Shown: piece after piece, positions 1,100 through 41,013 of the stretch
Layout: every line of letters starts with the position of its first letter
Numbering within the stretch: position 1 is the stretch's first letter
Made by a program: the position numbers and the translations under genes
The notes under the pieces: model-generated
Told to the model about the DNA's origin: nothing
What the model saw: the letters and a program-made list of their open reading frames with translations, nothing else
Databases searched by the model: none
Assembly: GCA_018822885.1 (NCBI GenBank)
Contig: JAHJJA010000047.1
Span: forward strand, 5,384-69,383
Length of the DNA: 64,000 bases
Source of the DNA: Candidatus Omnitrophota bacterium
Lineage (GTDB): Bacteria > Omnitrophota > Gorgyraeia > Gygaellales > Profunditerraquicolaceae
Direction: 5' to 3'

Positions 1100-4000
1100 A
1101 TGAAAATAGCTATTCTGACAAATGAATACCCGCCGAATGTATATGGCGGCGCCGGAGTCCATGTTGAATATTTGACCCGCGAACTTTCCAGGCTGGAGAA
1201 CGGCGCGCACGTGGTAAAAGTCTTTTGTTTTGGAGCTCAGAAGGCTGAAAGCGCAAATTTAAGAGTTGAAGGGGTAAGCGCGCAGTATGATTTTCCGGTT
1301 AAAGACGCTCGGCATAAAAAGTTCCTGGATACCATGCTCAAAGACATCATCATTTCAGGTGAGCTTGATGATGTCGATATAGTGCATTGTCATACCTGGT
1401 ACAGCCACTTTGCGGGGCTTATGGTAAAACAGCTGTTAAACATTCCGCTTGTCCTGACAACCCACTCCCTGGAGCCGCACCGGCCGTGGAAAGCCGAACA
1501 GCTCGGTACCGCTTATAACGCGAGTTCCTGGATTGAAAGGACCGCTTATGAAAACGCGGATGGTGTCATAGCGGTCTCTAAAGCAATGAGAAAAGATATC
1601 AAGGACCTCTATAACGTGCCTTCCGAAAGGATCAAAGTAATTTATAACGGCATTGACCTAAATCAATATAAGCCGGTTAAGGACAAGGCAGTCCTTAATA
1701 AATACAAAATAGACCCGAAAATCCCGTATATACTTTTTGTCGGCAGGATCACCAGGCAAAAAGGGATCATCCACCTCGTGAACGCGATCAAGCACATTAA
1801 AGCGGGGCATCAGGTGGTTTTATGCGCGGGCGCTCCTGACACAAAAGAAATAGTGGAGGAAATGAAAGTCAAAGTTGAGAAGGTCAGAAAAGAAACAAAG
1901 AATAAAGTCATCTGGATAGAGGAAATGGTTTCTAAAGAAGATATCATAGCGCTTTATTCACAGGCAGCACTTTTTGTCTGTCCCTCGGTTTATGAGCCTT
2001 TTGGCATAATCAATATTGAGGCAATGGCGTGCGAGACCCCGGTAGTCGCGACAAAAGTAGGAGGCATCCCTGAAATAGTCGTGCCAAATGAAACAGGGTT
2101 ACTGGTGCCGATCCAGCACAAAGGCGCCAATGACTTCGAGCCGGTTGAGCCGGAAAAATTCTCAGAGGATTTAGCTTGCGCGATCAATTCTATCATAGAC
2201 GATGCCGGTAAACTTAGAGATATGGGGCTTAAGTCAAGGCAGCGGGTAGTGGAGCTTTTCAGCTGGAAGAGTATAGCCGAGGAGACCCTTGATTTTTATA
2301 AGCACCTTATTGAAAAGAAGGGTGCGCTAGACGTCAAAGGTAAACAGCGTGTGACTATTGAAAAGGTCCTGCCTGAGGTGGACAATGGAAAATATCCGAT
2401 AAAAAGGGTGCCCGGACAGCGCGTGAAAGTCATGGCCCATATTATTTCAGATGGGCACGATGAGAAGACGGCTTTTCTTCATTATTCTCATGCTTCGGAT
2501 AAGACATGGCAGGAAAAAGAACTGCTCCTGCAATATAACGACGAATATCTCGGGGATTTTGAGATTGAAAAAGAAGGTACCTATTTTTACACGGTGCGTT
2601 CCTGGATCGACCACTTTAAGACCTGGCGCAGCGAACTCGAGAAAAAGATCGCGGTAAAACAGGATGTTGCTGTAGATCTTTTAATAGGCGTTTCTTTGAT
2701 AGAGGAAGCATTGGGAAGGGCAGGGAAGAAAGATGGGGAGAAATTATCCGGATATATTGAAAAAATTAAACGTAAGGGTAAGGATCAGATAAAAGCAGCT
2801 TTGAGTAAAGAGCTCCTTGAGCTTATGAAAAAATATCCTGAAAAGGCCCTTATCTCGCAATATCACAACGAACTTGAAGTGAAAGTGGAGAGGGACAGGG
2901 CATCTTTTAGCAGCTGGTACGAGATGTTTCCTCGTTCAACTTCCAGGGTGATAGGTAAGCATGGGACCTTTAAGGATTGTGAGAAACTGCTTCCGGAAAT
3001 CGCAGGTATGGGTTTTGATGTTCTATATTTTCCACCCATCCACCCAATAGGGGTAAAAAACAGGAAGGGCAAGAATAATTCTATAAAAGCCACAGCTTCA
3101 GATCCGGGTAGCCCTTGGGCAATAGGTGGGAAGGAGGGCGGGCATAAAGCAATACATCCAGAGCTGGGGAGTTTTGAGGATTTTGCTTCGCTGGTTGCCA
3201 AGGCCAAAAAACACGGGATGGAGATAGCTCTTGATATTGCTTTTCAGTGTTCAAATGACCATCCGTATATCAAAGAGCATCCCGAGTGGTTCTCCTGGAG
3301 GCCGGATAGGACTATCCAGCACGCTGAAAACCCACCGAAAAAATATGAAGATATCGTCCCTTTTAATTTTAGAACAGACAACTGGAAAGAGTTGTGGGAA
3401 GAGTTAAAATCAATTTTCATCTTCTGGGCACAAAAGGGGGTAAGGATATTCAGGGTAGACAATCCTCACACAAAGCCGGTCGCCTTCTGGGAATGGCTAA
3501 TAGCCGAGGTAAAAAAAGAATATCCTGACACACTCTTTCTTTCCGAGGCTTTTACCAGGCCGAAGATGATGAACATGCTTGCAAAAGTTGGTTTTTCACA
3601 GTCATATACTTACTTCACCTGGAGAAATACAAAGCATGAGCTTGTCGAATATATTAATGACTTGACCAAGACCGCAGCTGCTGAGTTTTTCAGGCCGAAT
3701 TTCTGGCCGAATACTCCTGATATCCTGCACGAATACCTGCAGAAAGGAGGCAGGCCCGCTTTTATCATACGGCTTGTGCTTGCAGGCACGATTTCTTCTA
3801 ATTACGGGATATATGGGGGCGCCTACATAACCTGCCAGAACGAGCCCTATCCGGGTAAAGAAGAGTATGTAAACAACGAAAAGTATGAATTAAAAAACTG
3901 GAATCTAAACGCGCCGGGCAATATTAAGAAAGAAGTCACCCTAATAAACAAGATCAGGAAGGAAAACCCGGCGTTTCAGGAAACAAACAATATAAGCCTC

Positions 4001-4267
4001 AGGGAAACGAATAACCCCAACATAATTTCTTATGTAAAAGCCACTAGAGATCTGTCCAGCGTAATTTTGACCGTTGTAAATCTTGACCCGCGCAACACGC
4101 ATGCGGGCCTGGTAAGTGTGCCTTTAGGCGAACTTGGCTTGCCGGACGACGAAGATTATGAAGTCGAGGATTTATTGAACAATGAAACTTATATCTGGAA
4201 TGGCGAGTGGAACTATGTTGAACTTGATCCTGCCATAACCCCTGCTCATATATTTCGGATCAAGTGA
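1100..4267 (+). CDS. glgE: Bifunctional GT4 glycosyltransferase (glycogen synthase/GlgM-like) fused to alpha-1,4-glucan:maltose-1-phosphate maltosyltransferase (GlgE)
   Basis: The N-terminal ~400 aa has a GT4/glycogen-synthase fold (KIAILTNEYPP..GGAGVHV..., EPFGIINIEAMACETPVVAT..GGIPEIV). Residues ~410-560 match the GlgE N-terminal domain (VTIEKVLPEVDNGKYPIKRVPGQRVKVMAHIISDGHD). The rest is the GlgE GH13_3 catalytic core (FDVLYFPPIHPIG..., RIFRVDNPHTKP, FLSEAFTRPK). Confidence 0.75.
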   Translation: MKIAILTNEYPPNVYGGAGVHVEYLTRELSRLENGAHVVKVFCFGAQKAESANLRVEGVSAQYDFPVKDARHKKFLDTMLKDIIISGELDDVDIVHCHTWYSHFAGLMVKQLLNIPLVLTTHSLEPHRPWKAEQLGTAYNASSWIERTAYENADGVIAVSKAMRKDIKDLYNVPSERIKVIYNGIDLNQYKPVKDKAVLNKYKIDPKIPYILFVGRITRQKGIIHLVNAIKHIKAGHQVVLCAGAPDTKEIVEEMKVKVEKVRKETKNKVIWIEEMVSKEDIIALYSQAALFVCPSVYEPFGIINIEAMACETPVVATKVGGIPEIVVPNETGLLVPIQHKGANDFEPVEPEKFSEDLACAINSIIDDAGKLRDMGLKSRQRVVELFSWKSIAEETLDFYKHLIEKKGALDVKGKQRVTIEKVLPEVDNGKYPIKRVPGQRVKVMAHIISDGHDEKTAFLHYSHASDKTWQEKELLLQYNDEYLGDFEIEKEGTYFYTVRSWIDHFKTWRSELEKKIAVKQDVAVDLLIGVSLIEEALGRAGKKDGEKLSGYIEKIKRKGKDQIKAALSKELLELMKKYPEKALISQYHNELEVKVERDRASFSSWYEMFPRSTSRVIGKHGTFKDCEKLLPEIAGMGFDVLYFPPIHPIGVKNRKGKNNSIKATASDPGSPWAIGGKEGGHKAIHPELGSFEDFASLVAKAKKHGMEIALDIAFQCSNDHPYIKEHPEWFSWRPDRTIQHAENPPKKYEDIVPFNFRTDNWKELWEELKSIFIFWAQKGVRIFRVDNPHTKPVAFWEWLIAEVKKEYPDTLFLSEAFTRPKMMNMLAKVGFSQSYTYFTWRNTKHELVEYINDLTKTAAAEFFRPNFWPNTPDILHEYLQKGGRPAFIIRLVLAGTISSNYGIYGGAYITCQNEPYPGKEEYVNNEKYELKNWNLNAPGNIKKEVTLINKIRKENPAFQETNNISLRETNNPNIISYVKATRDLSSVILTVVNLDPRNTHAGLVSVPLGELGLPDDEDYEVEDLLNNETYIWNGEWNYVELDPAITPAHIFRIK

Positions 4268-4561: not shown

Positions 4562-4682
4562 TTATTTCTGTTCACCCCCTTTACAACAAAAAAACCGTAA
4601 AGCGTTTTGTTTAGTTCTTTGCTTTTACGGTTTCGTCCATGTTACTAATCGCTATGCTCCTTTGTTTCTGTAGCTTGAAAAT

Positions 4683-4710
4683 AATATAACACATTTTTTT
4701 ATATTGTCAA
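4683..4710 (-). promoter_or_regulatory. Sigma70-type promoter for csp with ~115-nt 5'UTR
   Basis: Minus strand reads TTGACA-N16-TATATT (plus 4705-4710 and 4683-4688). A long 5'UTR is typical of cspA-like genes. Confidence 0.5.
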
Positions 4711-4752
4711 TCTAAACTTTATGCTATAATTACATAAATATTTTAGCAGTTT

Positions 4753-4985
4753 GCCGATGTAGCTTAAGCCCCGAAAGGCGCTTCGTGCATTCGGGTCCCG
4801 ACTTACGACATTAGATGTCGTTTGGTCGGAACGTCGGGATTGGTAGATTGGTGGTAGGATTATCATATGCCGATGTAGCTCAGCCCCGACGCTCGCTTAC
4901 GCTCGGTCGGGGTCCCGACTTCCGACACTAGATGTCGTTTGGTCGGAACGTCGGGATTGGTAGATTGGTGGTAGGATTATCATAT
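4753..4985 (+). repeat. Two tandem ~116-nt structured repeat units abutting tRNA-Thr, each starting with a copy of the tRNA's first 15 nt
   Basis: Unit 1 is 4753-4868 and unit 2 is 4869-4985. Both begin GCCGATGTAGCT(T/C)A, matching the tRNA-Thr 5' end. Each has a GC-clamped hairpin (CCCGAA-N14-TTCGGG in unit 1, CCCCGAC-GCTCGCTTACGCTCG-GTCGGGG in unit 2) whose stem changes are compensatory. A second hairpin TCCCGAC-N30-GTCGGGA follows in both. Confidence 0.7.
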
Positions 4986-5058
4986 GCCGATGTAGCTCAG
5001 TTGGTAGAGCAGCGCTTTCGTAAAGCGCGGGCCGGAGGTTCGATCCCTCTCATCGGCT
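4986..5058 (+). tRNA. tRNA-Thr (anticodon CGT)
   Basis: Acceptor GCCGATG/CATCGGC, D arm GCTC-AGTTGGTA-GAGC, anticodon stem GCGCT/AGCGC with loop TTCGTAA, T arm GGAGG-TTCGATC-CCTCT. CCA not encoded. Confidence 0.85.
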
Positions 5059-5071
5059 AAATTTTGTCTTT

Positions 5072-6328
5072 ATGCCCAAAATAAGAGAAGTATTAAAGAA
5101 CCGCGATTTCTTTTTGTTGTGGGTCGGCCAGATAATCTCCCAACTTGGTGACAGGTTGGGGTTTATGGCCCTGATCGGTTTTGCCTATTCTAAAAAAGAC
5201 CAAGGTTCGCCCGCCGAAATATTCAAGATCCTCCTGTTTACGATAATCCCGGTTTTTCTTATCGGCCCGATAGCCGGGGCTTATGTGGACAGGTGGGACA
5301 GGCGCAGGACGATGTATCTTTGCGACCTTCTGCGGATGCTCTTGGTTTTGATCATCCCGTTTTTTTTATTTTATCAGAGGAATCTGCCCATAGCTTATTG
5401 TATCATATTCCTGATCTTCTGTCTGGCGCGTTTCTTTGTGCCTGCGAAGTTAGCTATTGTTCCTGATCTGGTGGAGAAGAAACATCTTTTAATGGCTAAT
5501 TCGCTGGTGAATGTGACAGGGATGATCGCTTTTGTCATCGGCTCTGGAGTCGGAGGTGTCTTGGTAGAATGGGTGGGGGCTGAAAAGGGGTTCTATCTGG
5601 ATGCCTTGAGTTTTCTTGTCTCCGCATTGCTAATATTCTCTATTTCGACCCGCTGGGCAGTGAAAATGAACTTTAAGAGGATAAGCGGAGAGATAGTCGA
5701 GGTGATCAAGAAGTCAGTTGCGCAGGAAATAAAAGAGGGGTTTATTTATTTTGTAAGCAAAAAGGATATAAGATTTACTTCCTGGATTCTCTTTGTAGTA
5801 GCTTCTGCTTTAGGCATTCTATCGGTTGTCTCTATCGTATTTATCCAAAATACCCTGCACTCTGCGACTAAAGACCTTGGGCTTTTGATCATGTTTTTAG
5901 GGGCAGGGCTGTTTGTGGGGACGCTTGCTTACGGGAAATTCTGCCAAAGGGTCTCTCATTATAAGGCGATCTTTGTGGCATTTATCTTAAGCGGCGGCCT
6001 GATCATCTGCTTTACCTTAAGTTTAAGCAGGTATCCTCATTTTGGCATTGCCATGGCCCTTGCGTTGATGTTCGGGTTGTTGGTCTCGCCGATCATGTCT
6101 GTGGTCAATACTATTATCCATAAGACCAGCGATAATGATATGCGGGGCAAGATCTTTAGCTCCTTAGAAATCGTAATGCATTTTGGATTTTTATTATTCA
6201 TGTGGATAAGCAGTATCCTCGCGGAGCGTTTTTCAAATTCGCTAATACTTGTAATCGTCGGGTGTGTTTTTATCGCGCTGGGTATTATTAATCTTATTTT
6301 TCATCGTAGGATTCCATGGTTAGATTAG
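5072..6328 (+). CDS. MFS transporter
   Basis: 418 aa, 12 predicted TM segments, MFS-like N-terminus with conserved GxxxDRxGRR-like motif (YVDRWDRRRT). Confidence 0.65.
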   Translation: MPKIREVLKNRDFFLLWVGQIISQLGDRLGFMALIGFAYSKKDQGSPAEIFKILLFTIIPVFLIGPIAGAYVDRWDRRRTMYLCDLLRMLLVLIIPFFLFYQRNLPIAYCIIFLIFCLARFFVPAKLAIVPDLVEKKHLLMANSLVNVTGMIAFVIGSGVGGVLVEWVGAEKGFYLDALSFLVSALLIFSISTRWAVKMNFKRISGEIVEVIKKSVAQEIKEGFIYFVSKKDIRFTSWILFVVASALGILSVVSIVFIQNTLHSATKDLGLLIMFLGAGLFVGTLAYGKFCQRVSHYKAIFVAFILSGGLIICFTLSLSRYPHFGIAMALALMFGLLVSPIMSVVNTIIHKTSDNDMRGKIFSSLEIVMHFGFLLFMWISSILAERFSNSLILVIVGCVFIALGIINLIFHRRIPWLD

Positions 6329-9722: not shown

Positions 9723-10330
9723 TGGACCTAGGTAAGATTATTGCTATCGCAATAAGCATGATCTTTGTCAATAACTTCATCCTTTCTAAATTTCTCGGGC
9801 TCTGCCCATTCTTAGGGGTTTCAAAGGAAAGTAAGCCAGCGCTTTCAATGGGCGCGGCTGTTATTTTTGTCATGACTTGTTCCTCGATAATGACCTGGCT
9901 GATCTATAATTATCTGCTTCTGCCGTTTAATATAGGATATTTAAGAACAATAACTTTTATCCTTGTAATAGCGGCCTTTGTGCAGTTTATAGAGATGGTC
10001 ATACGCAAATATTCCAATGTTTTATACAGGAGCCTTGGTATTTACCTTCCCCTGATTACCACTAATTGCGCTGTGCTGGGAGTCACCATACTCAATATCA
10101 ATAATTTCTATTCAGGCGGCAAGGCTGTCAAGGCGAGTTTTATTTATTCCACATTCCAGGCATTTTTCGCGGGTGTCGGTTTTCTTGTCGCGCTTATACT
10201 TATGTCAGGTATAAGAGAGCGCCTTGAATTGTCGGATGTGCCTGAAAGCCTTAAAGGAATACCGATAGCTTTTATCGTAGCATCTCTGATGAGTTTGGCG
10301 TTTATGGGATTTAGCGGATTCTCCCGCTAA
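9722..10330 (+). CDS. rnfA: Rnf subunit A
   Basis: ATG at 9722 overlaps the rnfE TAA (TAATG) and follows an AAAGGAGG RBS. RnfA/NqrE-like six-TM protein (FLGLCPFLGVS). Confidence 0.85.
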   Translation: MDLGKIIAIAISMIFVNNFILSKFLGLCPFLGVSKESKPALSMGAAVIFVMTCSSIMTWLIYNYLLLPFNIGYLRTITFILVIAAFVQFIEMVIRKYSNVLYRSLGIYLPLITTNCAVLGVTILNINNFYSGGKAVKASFIYSTFQAFFAGVGFLVALILMSGIRERLELSDVPESLKGIPIAFIVASLMSLAFMGFSGFSR

Positions 10331-16290: not shown

Positions 16291-16400
16291 TTGAAACCAA
16301 TTGTTCTTTATCAAAATTAGGGTATAATCAGCAATAGCGAATGAAATTTTAGAGGCGAAGCCAAGGGACTGTTATAAGATTTCGCTAAGGAAAATAAATT

Positions 16401-16735
16401 CGCGGGGTGGAGCAGCCTGGTAGCTCGCAAGGCTCAATGTCTCGCCTATACATGTATGGGCGTACGATGGGCTATTCAGCCGGTAACGGCTGAAGGATAG
16501 TCGGTCAAATTCGGTGAAGCCCGAAAGGGTAATACCGAGCCAAGCCTGCGCAGTTTTGCTTTGCAAAACGAAGCAGCACAGGAAGGTGTAGAGACTAAAC
16601 GGCCGAGACCCTTCTTAAGGAAGGGCCAAGATATAGTCCAGACTACGAATTTGCCAGAGTAGCGGCAAAGCGGCGAAAGCCGAAGTAGTATGCATAACCT
16701 TGAGGTCATGCGTTCAAATCGCATCCCCGCAACCA
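16401..16735 (+). tRNA. Initiator tRNA-fMet (CAT) interrupted by a group I intron in the anticodon loop
   Basis: Exon 1 (16401-16434) is CGCGGGGTGGAGCAGCCTGGTAGCTCGCAAGGCT, with C1 mispaired against A72, A11:U24 and the D arm of bacterial initiator tRNA. Exon 2 (16693-16735) supplies CATAA, CCTTG, AGGTC, the T arm ATGCG-TTCAAAT-CGCAT, CCCCGCA, discriminator A and CCA. Mature loop would be CUCAUAA. Confidence 0.8.
16435..16692 (+). ncRNA. Group I intron (IC3-like), 258 nt, no ORF
   Basis: It follows exon U33 and ends in G. It contains P7-P8-P7'-like AGACTAAACGGCC...CCCTTCTTAAGGAAGGG...GGCCAAGATATAGTCC. It also contains GTCAAATTCGGTGAAGCC, CCGAGCCAAGC and GAAGGTGTAGAGACTA, which I recognise from the Azoarcus tRNA-Ile and cyanobacterial tRNA introns. 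Many GNRA-type hairpins are present. Confidence 0.7.
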
Positions 16736-19868: not shown

Positions 19869-19918
19869 TCAAGACCCGGTCTTGACTTTCTATCTCAATG
19901 TTAAGACCGGGTCTTGAC
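19869..19918. repeat. Pair of 18-bp near-palindromic sites
   Basis: 19869-19886 is TCAAGACCCGGTCTTGAC and 19901-19918 is TTAAGACCGGGTCTTGAC. They are reverse complements of each other, each self-complementary, and related to the hairpin arms at 856-905. Confidence 0.6.
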
Positions 19919-20100: not shown

Positions 20101-20985
20101 ATGAAAGAAAAAGTGCTTAAAATAGGTTTACCAAAGGGCAGCCTTCAGGAGGCGACCTTTAAAATATTTAAAAAGGCCGGATTCAATGTTTCGCTTCCTA
20201 ATGAGCGCTCTTATTTTCCGTCGATAAATGACCCCGAAATAAAAGCGGTATTGCTGCGCGCGCAGGAGATGTCCCGTTACGTGCAGGATGAAGCGCTTGA
20301 TTGCGGGATCACCGGCAATGACTGGATTTTAGAAAACAGGTCTGACGTGGTAAGGATCACTGATCTGGCTTACGCCAAGCAGAGCATGAACAAGGTGCGC
20401 TGGGTCCTGGCTGTACCGCAGGATTCCGGAGTAAAGTCGGTGAAGGATCTAGGTGGAAAGCGCATTGCCACGGAATTGGTTAATGTCACCAAAGATTACT
20501 TTAAAAAGCACAATGTCAAGGTCGATGTTGAATTCAGCTGGGGCGCCACAGAAGTCAAGGTAAGCGCCGGGTTAGTCGATGCTATTGTCGAGCTTACCGA
20601 GACCGGTTCAAGCCTAAGGGCAAATAAATTAAGCGAGATCGCCACTCTTTGCGAATCCACTACGCAGTTCATCTGCAATAAAAAAGCGTTTAAAGACCCT
20701 TGGAAGAAGGCGAAGATGGAGGAGATAGCACTTTTATTAAAGGGCGCCATTGCCGCCGAGGCAAAAGTAGGCCTGAAAATGAATGTGCGTAAAGGTGATC
20801 TGAAGAAAGTAACTTCTAAACTCCCCGCGCTTAGAAAACCGACTATCTCCGGACTTTCCGAAGATGGATGGTATGCGGTCGAGACTATAATAGATGAGAG
20901 TGTAGTGCGCGTGCTGATCCCGGAGTTAAAGAAGGCCGGGGCCTCGGGGATCATTGAGTATCCGTTGAATAAAGTAATTTACTAG
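20101..20985 (+). CDS. hisG: ATP phosphoribosyltransferase, long form
   Basis: 294 aa: HisG catalytic domains plus a C-terminal regulatory domain. Confidence 0.85.
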
Positions 20986-25240: not shown

Positions 25241-25269
25241 GGCAGGATGACCGCAAGTTCATATTTGCC

Positions 25270-25389
25270 CGGTAGTGTCCCGCCGTAGTATTGGGTAGCA
25301 AGCGGGATCCCGACCGAGCGTAAGCGAGCGTCGGGATAATGGTAGCACAGGGCGGCCTCGCAAAGTATGAGGAACTTAGAATTTAGATT
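25270..25389 (+). repeat. tRNA-Gln-flanking structured repeat, copy A (upstream)
   Basis: It contains CCCGC-N18-GCGGG, then a TCCCGAC-CGAGCGTAAGCGAGC-GTCGGGA hairpin. The loop is the reverse complement of the unit-2 loop at 4891-4905. Confidence 0.65.
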
Positions 25390-25460
25390 TGGGATGTCGT
25401 CCAATGGGAGGACACGAGAATTTGGGTCTCGCTATCATGGTTCGAATCCATGCGTCCCAA
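25390..25460 (+). tRNA. tRNA-Gln (anticodon TTG)
   Basis: U1-A72 acceptor TGGGATG/CGTCCCA, D arm GTCC-AATGGGA-GGAC, anticodon stem CGAGA/TCTCG with loop ATTTGGG, T arm CATGG-TTCGAAT-CCATG. G37 is slightly unusual. Confidence 0.75.
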
Positions 25461-25486
25461 TTTGATAAGATGATTGTCAAGGTTCT

Positions 25487-25590
25487 CCCGCCGTAGTATT
25501 AGGTAGCAAGCGGGATCCCAACTGAACGCAATAGAAGTTGGGAATCCTTGCCGGGCAACGGTCGATTTCAGACGTCCCAACTAACACAGA
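25487..25590 (+). repeat. tRNA-Gln-flanking structured repeat, copy B (downstream)
   Basis: Same CCCGCCGTAGTATT(A/G)GGTAGCAAGCGGGAT head as copy A. The hairpin is TCCCAAC-TGAACGCAATAGAA-GTTGGGA, covarying with copy A. It ends GGTCGATTTCAGACGTCCCAA, a degenerate copy of the tRNA-Gln T-arm and acceptor 3' end. Confidence 0.65.
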
Positions 25591-30583: not shown

Positions 30584-31923
30584 TGGCTAACGCTTTAGCG
30601 ATAGAAAAGATCCCCCCGCAGAATCTTGAGGCGGAAATGGCTGTTTTAGGTTCTATGCTTTTGGATGAAGAGGCTATTTCTGTTGCCATCGAGAAGCTCG
30701 ATGAAGATTCATTTTATAAAGACTCCCACCGAAAGATCTTTCAGGCTGTATCCGGGCTTTTTGCCGCAAATAAGGCAGTCGACCTGATCACTCTTACCGA
30801 CGAGTTAAAGAGAAGTGAAATGCTGGGTAATATCGGAGGGGTCAGCTATCTTACGGCCCTGGTCAATTCTGTGCCTTCGGCTGCCAATATCAATCATTAT
30901 GTCTCGATAGTCAAAGAAAAATACATCCTAAGGACGCTAATCAACAGCGCCAGTAAAATAATCGCTCTTAGTTATGAAAGCGAAGGCAATGTCGATGAAG
31001 TCGTAGATAACGCTGAAAAATTCATCTTTGAAGTAAGCGACAGGAAGGCACACGGCGCTTCCTATATACATTTGAAGGAGATAGTAAAAAGCAGTATTGA
31101 GACTATCGATAAGCTGTATCAGAAGAAGGCGCATGTCACCGGCATACCTACCGGTTACATTGATTTTGATATCAAGACCGCGGGGTTGCAGCCGTCGGAT
31201 CTGATCATTATTGCGGGAAGGCCATCGATGGGGAAAAGTGCTTTTGCCTTAGGCATGGCGGAGTACGCCGGAGTCGTGGAGAAGATCCCGACCGCGCTTT
31301 TTAGCCTTGAGATGTCTAAAGAGCAGTTGGTGCAGAGGATGCTCTGTTCTCATGCTAAAGTCGATGCGCACAAGGTCAGGACCGGTTATCTTGCTACCTC
31401 TGACTGGCCGAAACTTACCGCTGCCGCGGGTAAACTTTCTGAGGCCCCGATCTTTATCGATGACACACCGGGCATTTCGGTAATGGAGCTTCGGGCAAAG
31501 GCGCGCAGGCTCAAGGCGCATCATGATATCAAACTGATAATCTTAGATTACCTTCAGTTGATGCGGGGGAACCTTGGTTCAGAAAGTCGTCAACAGGAGA
31601 TCTCAGAGATCTCGCGGTCTTTGAAGGCCCTGGCCCGTGAGCTAAGCGTTCCGGTGATAGGGATCAGCCAGTTGTCCCGCGCGGTTGAATCGCGTAATGA
31701 CCATCGCCCGCAGCTTTCTGATCTAAGAGAGTCCGGGGCGATCGAACAGGATGCCGATGTAGTGGTACTTATATTAAGGGAAGAGTATTATAACCGTACT
31801 TCCGATAACGAGGGTGTAGCGGAGATAATTATTGCTAAACAGCGTAATGGCCCGGTCGGCTCTTTAAATCTCGCCTTTATTAAAGAATATACGCGATTTG
31901 AAAATATTGCCAGAGTCGAATAA
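30583..31923 (+). CDS. dnaB: Replicative DNA helicase
   Basis: DnaB N-terminal domain plus RecA-like core (GRPSMGKS Walker A, ISQLSR). Confidence 0.9.
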   Translation: MANALAIEKIPPQNLEAEMAVLGSMLLDEEAISVAIEKLDEDSFYKDSHRKIFQAVSGLFAANKAVDLITLTDELKRSEMLGNIGGVSYLTALVNSVPSAANINHYVSIVKEKYILRTLINSASKIIALSYESEGNVDEVVDNAEKFIFEVSDRKAHGASYIHLKEIVKSSIETIDKLYQKKAHVTGIPTGYIDFDIKTAGLQPSDLIIIAGRPSMGKSAFALGMAEYAGVVEKIPTALFSLEMSKEQLVQRMLCSHAKVDAHKVRTGYLATSDWPKLTAAAGKLSEAPIFIDDTPGISVMELRAKARRLKAHHDIKLIILDYLQLMRGNLGSESRQQEISEISRSLKALARELSVPVIGISQLSRAVESRNDHRPQLSDLRESGAIEQDADVVVLILREEYYNRTSDNEGVAEIIIAKQRNGPVGSLNLAFIKEYTRFENIARVE

Positions 31924-40773: not shown

Positions 40774-40952
40774 TGATTTGGTGCGGGACAAGCGCATCGA
40801 TTATTCGCGCCTGTAGCTTTAGTGAAGCCATAACTTATGGAGCGTAAGCGAACATAAGTTATATGGCTGAACTAATCCCGCACCAATAGGCATTAAACAT
40901 ACTTTATTGATTTGGTGCGGGACAAGCGCATCGATTATTCGCGCCTGTAGCT
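40774..40952 (+). repeat. 134-nt structured repeat unit plus partial second copy fused to the 5' end of tRNA-Arg
   Basis: TGATTTGGTGCGGGACAAGCGCATCGATTATTCGCGCCTGTAGCT occurs at 40774 and again at 40908, where it runs into the tRNA. Inside the unit, TTGGTGCGGGA (40777-40787) and TCCCGCACCAA (40876-40886) flank a hairpin GCCATAACTTATG-GAGCGTAAGCGAA-CATAAGTTATATGGC. Confidence 0.65.
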
Positions 40953-41013
40953 CAATGGATAGAGCGCTAGCCTTCGGAGCTAGGCGTTGGAGGTTCGACT
41001 CCTCCCAGGCGCA
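40941..41013 (+). tRNA. tRNA-Arg (anticodon TCG)
   Basis: Acceptor GCGCCTG/CAGGCGC, D arm GCTC-AATGGATA-GAGC, anticodon stem CTAGC/GCTAG with loop CTTCGGA, T arm GGAGG-TTCGACT-CCTCC. Confidence 0.85.

Follow-up and report, generated by a model that had tools for sequence, protein, structure and literature searches.

What are the two structured repeats that stand directly before a tRNA-Thr(CGU) gene in an uncultured Candidatus Omnitrophota bacterium, and how did they come to be there? Together they form a 233-nucleotide (nt) feature in a 64-kb stretch of DNA, the whole of which was analyzed and is referred to here as the window. With confidence a little better than even, we read them as two very small insertions without cargo, arranged in tandem in the D-arm of the tRNA, with the tRNA-Thr(CGU) gene regenerated downstream and the inserts carried as a tolerated leader that is removed by RNase P. 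From the anatomy of the units, their absence from relatives, the recurrence of the same architecture at other tRNA genes, a pair of filled and empty sites, and a spacer that is borne by the element itself in a related family, we infer that the units have been mobile.

The initial annotation of the locus described two head-to-tail units, each opening with the first 15 nt of the tRNA and continuing into two hairpins, and this arrangement is borne out by the sequence (Table 1) with one amendment: the copy is complete in unit 2, but that in unit 1 has decayed after nt 12. A repeat search identifies a 91-nt direct repeat with 98% identity and a spacing of 117 nt, and no array at tRNA-Thr is listed by Tandem Repeats Finder. 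Hairpin 2 and the tail are identical at 74 of 76 positions in the two units, and hairpin 1 is very different. The 12- to 15-nt tRNA segment thus occurs three times with near-identical 101-nt inserts between the copies and no unique spacers, in agreement with the earlier conclusion that this is not a CRISPR array. Overlooked at that stage were the 8 nt 3' of the hairpin module (TTGGTAGA), which are nt 16 to 23 of tRNA-Thr; on this basis, a unit could be nt 1 to 23 from the 5' end of the tRNA, split in the D-loop by a 73-nt module. This reading is made uncertain by a similar GTAGATTG spacer at a tRNA-Thr gene in a relative (L120), which the window tail resembles (GTAGATTG .. GGTAG(A/G)ATTA .. 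ATAT, an automated alignment of the two being poor); the resemblance links the window units to a wider family of 5' copies described below.

Table 1. Positions of the features discussed in the text (window coordinates, unless a locus in a relative is named)
Feature	Position	Strand	Remarks
Putative promoter of leader and tRNA-Thr	4704-4730	+	TTGTCA, 15-nt spacer, TGcTATAAT (extended -10); read from sequence
Unit 1	4753-4868	+	116 nt
Unit 1, tRNA-Thr 5' copy	4753-4764	+	nt 1-12 exact, then TAAG
Unit 1, hairpin 1	4769-4795	+	CCCGAA-N14-TTCGGG
Unit 1, hairpin 2	4796-4839	+	TCCCGAC-N30-GTCGGGA
Unit 1, tail	4840-4868	+	TTGGTAGATTGGTGGTAGGATTATCATAT, 29 nt
Unit 2	4869-4985	+	117 nt
Unit 2, tRNA-Thr 5' copy	4869-4883	+	nt 1-15 exact
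Unit 2, hairpin 1	4884-4912	+	CCCCGAC-GCTCGCTTACGCTCG-GTCGGGG
Unit 2, hairpin 2	4913-4956	+	TCCCGAC-N30-GTCGGGA
Unit 2, tail	4957-4985	+	First 8 nt are tRNA-Thr nt 16-23
Intact tRNA-Thr(CGU)	4986-5058	+	ARAGORN; Rfam tRNA, 67.7 bits; putative regenerated target gene
MFS transporter gene	5072-6328		Downstream neighbor of tRNA-Thr; csp is the other neighbor
Displaced 5' fragment of resident tRNA-Gln	25266-25349	+	nt 1-12 at 25266-25277; nt 13-26 at 25337-25349
59-nt two-hairpin module in D-loop of that fragment	25278-25336	+	Hairpin B carries GAGCGTAAGCGA
Intact tRNA-Gln(UUG), second sequence type	25389-25461	+	Type of L088 and L089; lies between the displaced fragments
Displaced 3' fragment of resident tRNA-Gln	25478-25580	+	CAAGGTTC at 25478-25485; GAATCCTTGCCGGGCAA at 25542-25558
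56-nt two-hairpin module in T-loop of that fragment	25486-25541	+	Split at TTC|GAAT
Degenerate 3' fragment of the second tRNA-Gln type	25559-25580	+	Follows the displaced 3' fragment
Exact 45-nt direct repeat at tRNA-Arg	40774-40818, 40908-40952	+	33 nt of leader plus tRNA-Arg nt 1-12
89-nt insert between the 45-nt repeats	40819-40907	+	First 57 nt form a hairpin tipped with GAGCGTAAGCGA; fold z of -4.4
Intact tRNA-Arg(UCG)	40941-41013	+	ARAGORN, Rfam
3'-type locus, L007	2325-2480		
3'-type locus, L013	2297-2480		
3'-type locus, L060	2286-2460		
3'-type locus, L024	1-240		Tandem

The only good promoter-like site for the tRNA-Thr leader lies upstream of unit 1 (Table 1); it is missing from the list produced by a consensus scan because its spacer is 15 nt, and the unit tails offer only weak hexamers as internal promoters. 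With the promoter in this position the units would form a leader of ~245 nt, which would probably be transcribed from this single site together with the tRNA and trimmed off by RNase P. Could the units then be a functional structured leader, or give rise to a leader-derived small RNA, with the 5' copy and the hairpins maintained by selection? Such an RNA might modulate folding or RNase P processing through competition for the 3' acceptor strand, or might be a separate RNA after cleavage, and the placement of the units between the only promoter and tRNA-Thr is consistent with this. We nonetheless consider it rather unlikely. The csp/tRNA-Thr/MFS gene order is kept in 80 species-representative genomes, more than 70 of which have a TTGACT-N17-TATAAT promoter and a short plain leader of ~12 to 17 nt that runs directly into tRNA-Thr, and the window modules are absent from all of the compared relatives with this locus. 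Judged by this comparison, the units are not a conserved leader, and a conserved structured leader or small RNA, one of the candidates in the initial annotation, is improbable for the window. The decay of the tRNA copy in unit 1 past nt 12 also argues against a functional leader, as do antisense folds that are often equally or more stable than the sense folds; relative to shuffled sequences both units fold only moderately better than expected, with modest z values that are similar for the two strands, of -2.6 and -2.8 on the sense strand and -2.9 and -3.9 on the antisense strand. Rfam 15 covariance models searched over positions 4600 to 5150 with E values up to 10 match the tRNA alone and assign the units to no family. 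The units are probably tolerated passengers rather than a conserved regulator.

The hairpin motifs are more frequent than chance predicts. The motif CCGAC-N-GTCGG has five matches in the window where 0.43 is expected, a number reached in none of 100 shuffles, and five hairpin modules are present at three tRNA loci within the 64 kb. The sequence GAGCGTAAGCGA occurs exactly three times in the window (4893-4904 on the minus strand, and 25316-25327 and 40840-40851 on the plus strand), each time beside a tRNA, with 0.29 occurrences expected when up to one mismatch is allowed; the related hairpins reported earlier at tRNA-Gln and tRNA-Arg are thus confirmed. Two TCCC..GGGA hairpins at 10320 and 17162 were considered as further members and rejected, being ordinary terminators followed by T-runs, and an extra GCCGATGTAG at 31752 is a chance match within a coding region.

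The tRNA-Gln locus shows how such modules are placed. Three relatives (L086, L087, and L090) have one intact tRNA-Gln(UUG) between spoVG and glmU (TGCCCGGTAGTGTAATGGTAGCACA..GGTTCGAATCC..CCGGGCAA), and in the window this resident type persists only as two fragments, which flank an intact replacement gene of a second type. One fragment has a two-hairpin module in its D-loop and the other has one in its T-loop (Table 1); taking out the T-loop module restores the canonical TTCGAAT, and the two modules are homologous, with 89% identity over 46 nt. Because of this exact D-loop and T-loop placement, we read the modules as precise loop insertions in displaced tRNA fragments that stand beside a functional copy. 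An alternative in which the outer pieces are an intron-containing tRNA-Gln gene was rejected, as an ARAGORN intron search with the modules deleted found the inner gene only, and comparison with the relatives identifies the outer pieces as fragments. A metagenome scan with the exact sequence of tRNA-Gln hairpin A returned no match.

The tRNA-Gln modules also account for the difference between the first hairpins of the two tRNA-Thr units. These differ at paired positions, which had been taken as compensatory change and hence as evidence of selection on structure. There are just two copies to compare, and the reverse complement of tRNA-Gln hairpin B matches unit 2 hairpin 1 at 27 of 29 positions; this inverted match marks the hairpin as a cassette that has been exchanged or turned around, with a flipped loop, and not as a case of covariation in situ. 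Palindromic DNA keeps its arms matched without selection at the RNA level, and the case for covariation is, on these alignments, weak. The inversion of one hairpin relative to its tRNA-Gln twin is a further point against a selected leader RNA. For the tip, GAGCGUAAGCGA, a structure of tandem G-A pairs together with two G-C pairs and a GNRA loop can be proposed; the tip lies on the sense strand at tRNA-Gln and tRNA-Arg and on the antisense strand in unit 2. The second unit may be the product of unequal crossing-over or of a further insertion once the target had been regenerated, and an exchange or inversion of its first hairpin would have come later.

The tRNA-Arg locus raises a different possibility, namely that no dedicated element is involved. 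Slipped-strand or template-switch duplications with a breakpoint in the D-loop would generate the repeats, and generic intergenic hairpins of these genomes, resembling repetitive extragenic palindromic (REP) sequences, would fill the dead copies; tRNA genes would be prone to such events as highly transcribed, cloverleaf-forming sequences, and the survivors would be those that leave an intact gene. At tRNA-Arg the two 45-nt copies are 100% identical and 33 nt of each are native leader, and at a related locus (L115) the repeat is 29 nt and likewise takes in native leader, so that both resemble local duplications. The Arg-type hairpin (ACTTATG-tip-CATAAGT) belongs to a dispersed family that is found in either orientation, and away from tRNA fragments, at L001 and L047, and hairpins can be nested in hairpins, as at L148, where short 7-7-7 hairpins lie within an arm of an older hairpin in the upstream unit. 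Template-switch correction of palindromes, moreover, predicts compensatory changes in the arms. We give this explanation a low probability for reasons that come from the wider family. The dispersal of the Arg-type hairpin does not sit well with the earlier proposal of a single family that targets tRNA genes, and neither does the lack of any homologue of the Thr and Gln modules among ~150 other loci.

To what extent does the architecture recur? All tRNAs in the fetched loci were scanned for copies of their own ends, and two types emerged. In the 5' type, present in L056, L069, L034, L057, and L074, a displaced tRNA 5' copy is followed by one or more hairpins, a spacer, and the intact tRNA. Its form at tRNA-Thr in L056 and at tRNA-Phe in L069 and L034 is nt 1 to 13, a TCCNCC..GGNGGA hairpin, TTCGC, an AT-rich spacer, and the full tRNA, and L057 and L074 have the multihairpin form seen in the window. 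In the 3' type (Table 1), a full tRNA-Thr precedes a conserved structured insert of ~125 nt and an exact copy of the T-arm and the acceptor 3' strand. Part of the 3'-type insert of L013 is called by ARAGORN as an 88-nt "tRNA-Arg." Elements of nine related loci have no match in Rfam. In L075 (2081-2500) and L079 (334-640), a tRNA-Thr 3' fragment (ATTCCACTCATCGGCT) lies between the C-terminal end of a tyrosine-integrase gene and the MFS gene immediately downstream; an integrative element thus sits at the tRNA-Thr locus in other Omnitrophota, and the gene is a genuine target of integration in the phylum.

Contigs from these metagenome assemblies often end at this site: 18 of 80 terminate within ~350 nt upstream of the MFS gene, which fits the presence of repeats or of population heterogeneity there. 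Many GlmU homologues are also on very short contigs, and the tRNA-Thr and GlmU-linked tRNA loci are recurrent assembly break points. As the window itself comes from a metagenome-assembled genome, strain variants of the leader could have been threaded in series during assembly. We regard this as very improbable, since the units differ internally in their first hairpins, the 91-nt repeated core has unique flanks, and similar tandem doublets are present in independent assemblies made from other samples with other assemblers (L024, L109, L115, and L121).

A single pattern scan of metagenomes, with GTAGCTCTCCNCC-N(6-36)-GGNGGATTCGC, shows how common the 5' type is. It returned 47 loci, two of which are chance matches in GC-rich coding DNA; the 45 real ones (within L107 to L153, with L034, L056, and L069 labelled as further members of the family) have the tRNA's own nt 1 to 13, a TCCNCC..GGNGGA hairpin, TTCGC, a spacer, and the full tRNA. 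Most stand before tRNA-Phe, the others before tRNA-Thr(CGU), tRNA-Thr(UGU), tRNA-Met, tRNA-Ala, tRNA-Arg(CCU), or tRNA-Gly, and in each the 13-nt copy matches the 5' end of the adjoining tRNA. The hairpins fall into a short class (7-7-7) and a long class (~45 nt, with a TTC/TTC internal loop), and tandem doublets like that of the window are present in L109, L115, L121, and L127. When filled sites L034 and L142 are compared with empty sites L043 and L035, promoter, native leader, and downstream flank are alike and the insert is the sole difference. A collection of viral sequences contains no match to the window hairpin or to the 5'-copy family, a family that Rfam lacks as well; its 15 matches to the 3'-type pattern are unrelated hairpins with no tRNA near.

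The boundaries of these inserts are informative as to their origin. The repeat always starts at +1 and always ends at +13, and among 37 events it extends upstream by 0 nt in 13, by 1 nt in 9, and by 2 nt in 6. The spacer before the intact tRNA (in the tRNA-Phe example, CAACAAAAAGATTTA) is common to lineages with unrelated native leaders, with identity across lineages of 54% for the spacer and 32% for 15 nt of native leader, and part of it is shared by different tRNA types. The sharp repeat ends and the conserved spacer together imply that a duplicate of the tRNA 5' end is supplied by the element. As a sequence pattern this argues against both a target duplication from a staggered cut and a simple local duplication, neither the conserved spacer nor the constant association of the same hairpin and TTCGC with position +13 in seven tRNA species being expected if no dedicated element existed. 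By analogy, it fits an inherited unit with its own tRNA 5' copy, as in tRNA-integrating islands.

The same family offers the best case for a leader under selection. The first 6 nt of the 5' copy, which were not forced by the search, are intact in 12 of 13 tRNA-Phe lineages amid a native leader that is randomized to 32% identity. The free stem position of the pattern is complementary in every locus, with all four pair types represented (G-C, T-A, C-G, and A-T). The hairpin followed by TTCG is always tied to ..TAGCTC, with no occurrence away from it in 0.92 Mb, and T-G wobbles outnumber G-T pairs by 15 to 1 on the sense strand of the hairpins. Set against these, close relatives include both filled and empty sites; in L150 the tRNA carries a G6-to-A substitution together with the matching one in its 3' strand, and the upstream copy is unaltered; and in the 45-nt hairpin subclass a covariation count finds most pairs invariant, which is uninformative and provides little real covariation.

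Larger insertions are found as well. In L152 (2144-3432), the D-loop of tRNA-Phe holds 1.25 kb of inserted DNA, with a copy of nt 1 to 22 on one side and the regenerated gene on the other; upstream of it stands a 5'-copy hairpin unit, TGTGG(C/T)T motifs recur near its two ends, and it contains no integrase but three small open reading frames (ORFs), one with an N terminus that on inspection of the sequence resembles PemK/MazF toxins. This insert bridges the size gap between the mini-inserts and islands. In L122, L139, L110/L112, and L147, tRNAs that follow the 5'-copy unit are truncated by longer insertions, the break falling past either the D-loop or the anticodon loop (..TTCGTAA| or ..TTCGCAA|). 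The first 6 or 7 nt of the tRNA copy in L149 and L151 form the basis of a snap-back hairpin (GGGCCTGAAAGGCCC), which is followed by a further insert of ~240 nt.

How might the insertions favored here have come about? Each would leave a displaced copy of the tRNA 5' end, followed by two GC-rich hairpins in one module and by a short spacer that runs into a fresh 5' copy, and an intact tRNA would therefore always be regenerated downstream. tRNA-integrating islands work on this principle; here it would be reduced to ~100 nt, free of genes, and shifted to the 5' part of the tRNA gene. It is established that an island leaves a displaced fragment and restores the tRNA gene that it splits (PMC4383910), and the likeness extends to an intact tRNA regenerated beside a cognate fragment in the same orientation, to tandem arrays at the regenerated target, and, in the related family, to an element that supplies the replaced part of the gene together with its own flank; the comparison holds also for integrase-less remnants that can be mobilized in cis. 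By the Islander definition used to catalogue islands (PMC4383910), the window has a full tRNA-Thr at 4986 with same-strand 5' fragments upstream at 4753 and 4869. It differs in that the intervals between fragment and tRNA are 101 to 102 nt of hairpins with no ORF and no tyrosine integrase, that the units are 116 and 117 nt rather than 2 to 200 kb, and that the junction falls after nt 12 to 15 in the D-arm rather than in the anticodon loop, the T-loop, or the T/acceptor junction. The inserts of 40 to 120 nt are dominated by hairpins and contrast in size with kilobase islands, and it is the 5' end that is displaced, as in only 4% of catalogued islands (159 of 3919), a catalogue from which candidates below 2 kb were discarded (PMC4383910).

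Our leading guess for the mover is recombination that uses the conserved tRNA sequence itself, either with a recombinase supplied in trans, as happens with remnants of integrative elements that lack an integrase, or by homology-anchored illegitimate recombination after DNA uptake. Several observations weigh against the insertion model. At 40 to 120 bp, the elements are below the size at which a circle could be an ordinary integrase substrate, and the crossover sites listed for islands are the anticodon and T regions, the D-arm not being recognized (PMC4383910). No recombinase is near the Thr, Gln, or Arg loci or among the 10 window ORFs tested, which also include no transposase. The Thr and Gln modules have no homologue outside this genome and are themselves at most putatively mobile, the tRNA-Arg and L115 repeats look like local duplications, and in the related family the intact 5' copy amid randomized leaders could reflect purifying selection and thus a function.

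We also entertain, tentatively and with less confidence, an undescribed class of tRNA-specific mini-elements, defined by an exact 13- to 15-nt tRNA 5' copy, hairpins, and a spacer, that either spread by dedicated machinery or are kept as a leader motif controlling maturation. The machinery would be a D-arm-specific recombinase acting in trans or a process that copies the 5' end of the mature tRNA from an RNA template. The ends at +1 and +13, the tie between the hairpin and ..TAGCTC, and the seven tRNA species are compatible with both spread and a leader motif.

Are other known elements closer in kind? REP sequences and REPINs, and palindromes like miniature inverted-repeat transposable elements (MITEs), such as the Rickettsia palindromic elements that insert inside genes, are likewise short, GC-rich, noncoding hairpins dispersed in either orientation. 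Here the modules are bounded by 7-nt inverted repeats (TCCCGNC..GNCGGGA), with (T/C)CCCG.C at the start and G.CGGGA at the end of Thr and Gln modules; these are simply the outer arms of the two hairpins, and the 45-locus family has no terminal inverted repeats. REPs have GTAG just 5' of the hairpin, and here the GTAG of the tRNA lies 2 to 5 nt before it. Unlike these palindromes, the insertions are tied to a tRNA loop and a 5' copy of the target comes along; every observed Thr or Gln module lies at a tRNA fragment, whereas Arg-type hairpins are also found elsewhere. MITEs make target-site duplications of fixed length, and the repeats here are 12 plus 33, 13, 15, 22, and 29 nt, with a flank beside the second copy that is element specific in the 45-locus family. 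A tRNA-targeting MITE-like element, as first suggested, is nevertheless close to the best reading; a short interspersed nuclear element-like origin, suggested with it, is unsupported, as only tRNA nt 1 to 15 are present and always match the adjoining gene, with no part of a B-box and no poly(A) tail.

Fungal mitochondrial double-hairpin elements and GC clusters consist of two adjacent short hairpins, lie in intergenic regions and in variable loops of structural RNA genes, and are associated with local rearrangements. They share with the window elements the two-hairpin unit, the loop or intergenic position, and the rearrangements, and they differ in belonging to another domain of life with no sequence relationship; to our knowledge, no regeneration of the target gene has been described for them. 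Casposon or CRISPR-integrase insertion can target tRNA genes and leaves repeats of ~14 to 15 bp around the insert. The 45-locus family departs from this in that the repeat starts at tRNA +1 and has an element-specific flank, and a casposase-like staggered-cut duplication was rejected because the flanks of the two copies differ from -1 onward; cas1 is not near the units, and the terminal inverted repeats of casposons are absent from this family. Also rejected were an IS200/IS605-like two-hairpin module, the flanks having no common target tetranucleotide (CAG|, GTG|, and TTC|), and an integron attC site, the arms not fitting RYYYAAC/GTTRRRY.

The window is core chromosome, with housekeeping gene content (cold-shock protein, Rnf complex, SpoVG, GlmU, Prs, enolase, FtsH, HisG, and chorismate synthase), and its MFS transporter (5072-6328) has 100% identity to an NCBI protein from a metagenome-assembled genome. 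ARAGORN calls tRNA-Phe, tRNA-Thr, tRNA-Gln, and tRNA-Arg, and an Rfam scan matches only tRNAs and one group I intron; a k-mer census at k=11 was too noisy to use. The intron (Intron_gpI, 16438-16657, 58 bits) splits a tRNA-fMet gene (16391-16735, plus strand) in its anticodon loop, and its host is not called by ARAGORN. An exact 12-mer, AGCAATAGCGAA, occurs twice on the plus strand (810-821 and 16330-16341), just 3' of the -10 regions of the tRNA-Phe gene and the tRNA-fMet gene, respectively, and at tRNA-Phe it is part of a hairpin, TCGCTA-GCAA-TAGCGA. Two related 45-nt hairpins (AGACCCGNTCTT..AAGANCGGGTCT) on the plus strand lie within the tRNA-Phe leader (857-901) and upstream of hisG (19872-19914, hisG starting at 20101). 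A 1,055-amino-acid ORF (1100-4267, plus strand) appears, from its translation, to be a fusion of an N-terminal glycogen synthase-like glycosyltransferase and an alpha-amylase- or maltosyltransferase-like C-terminal part.

tRNA genes are classic landing pads of mobile DNA, the recognized examples being islands of kilobase size that enter at the anticodon or T region, with 3' fragments left behind. The small insertions at the front of tRNA genes recur in related bacteria and appear to be undescribed; they have the same split-and-regenerate logic, here at the 5' side, in the D-arm, and with inserts of 40 to 120 nt. They are also common, with 45 metagenome loci recovered by one pattern, and they coincide with breaks in metagenome contigs. 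By creating long structured leaders, pseudo-tRNA fragments, and tandem repeats, they can mislead tRNA annotation, assemblers, and island finders that discard candidates below 2 kb. If the inserts are mobile, they would be among the smallest target-regenerating elements known and would point to machinery not yet identified; if they are selected, they would represent a new kind of tRNA leader motif.

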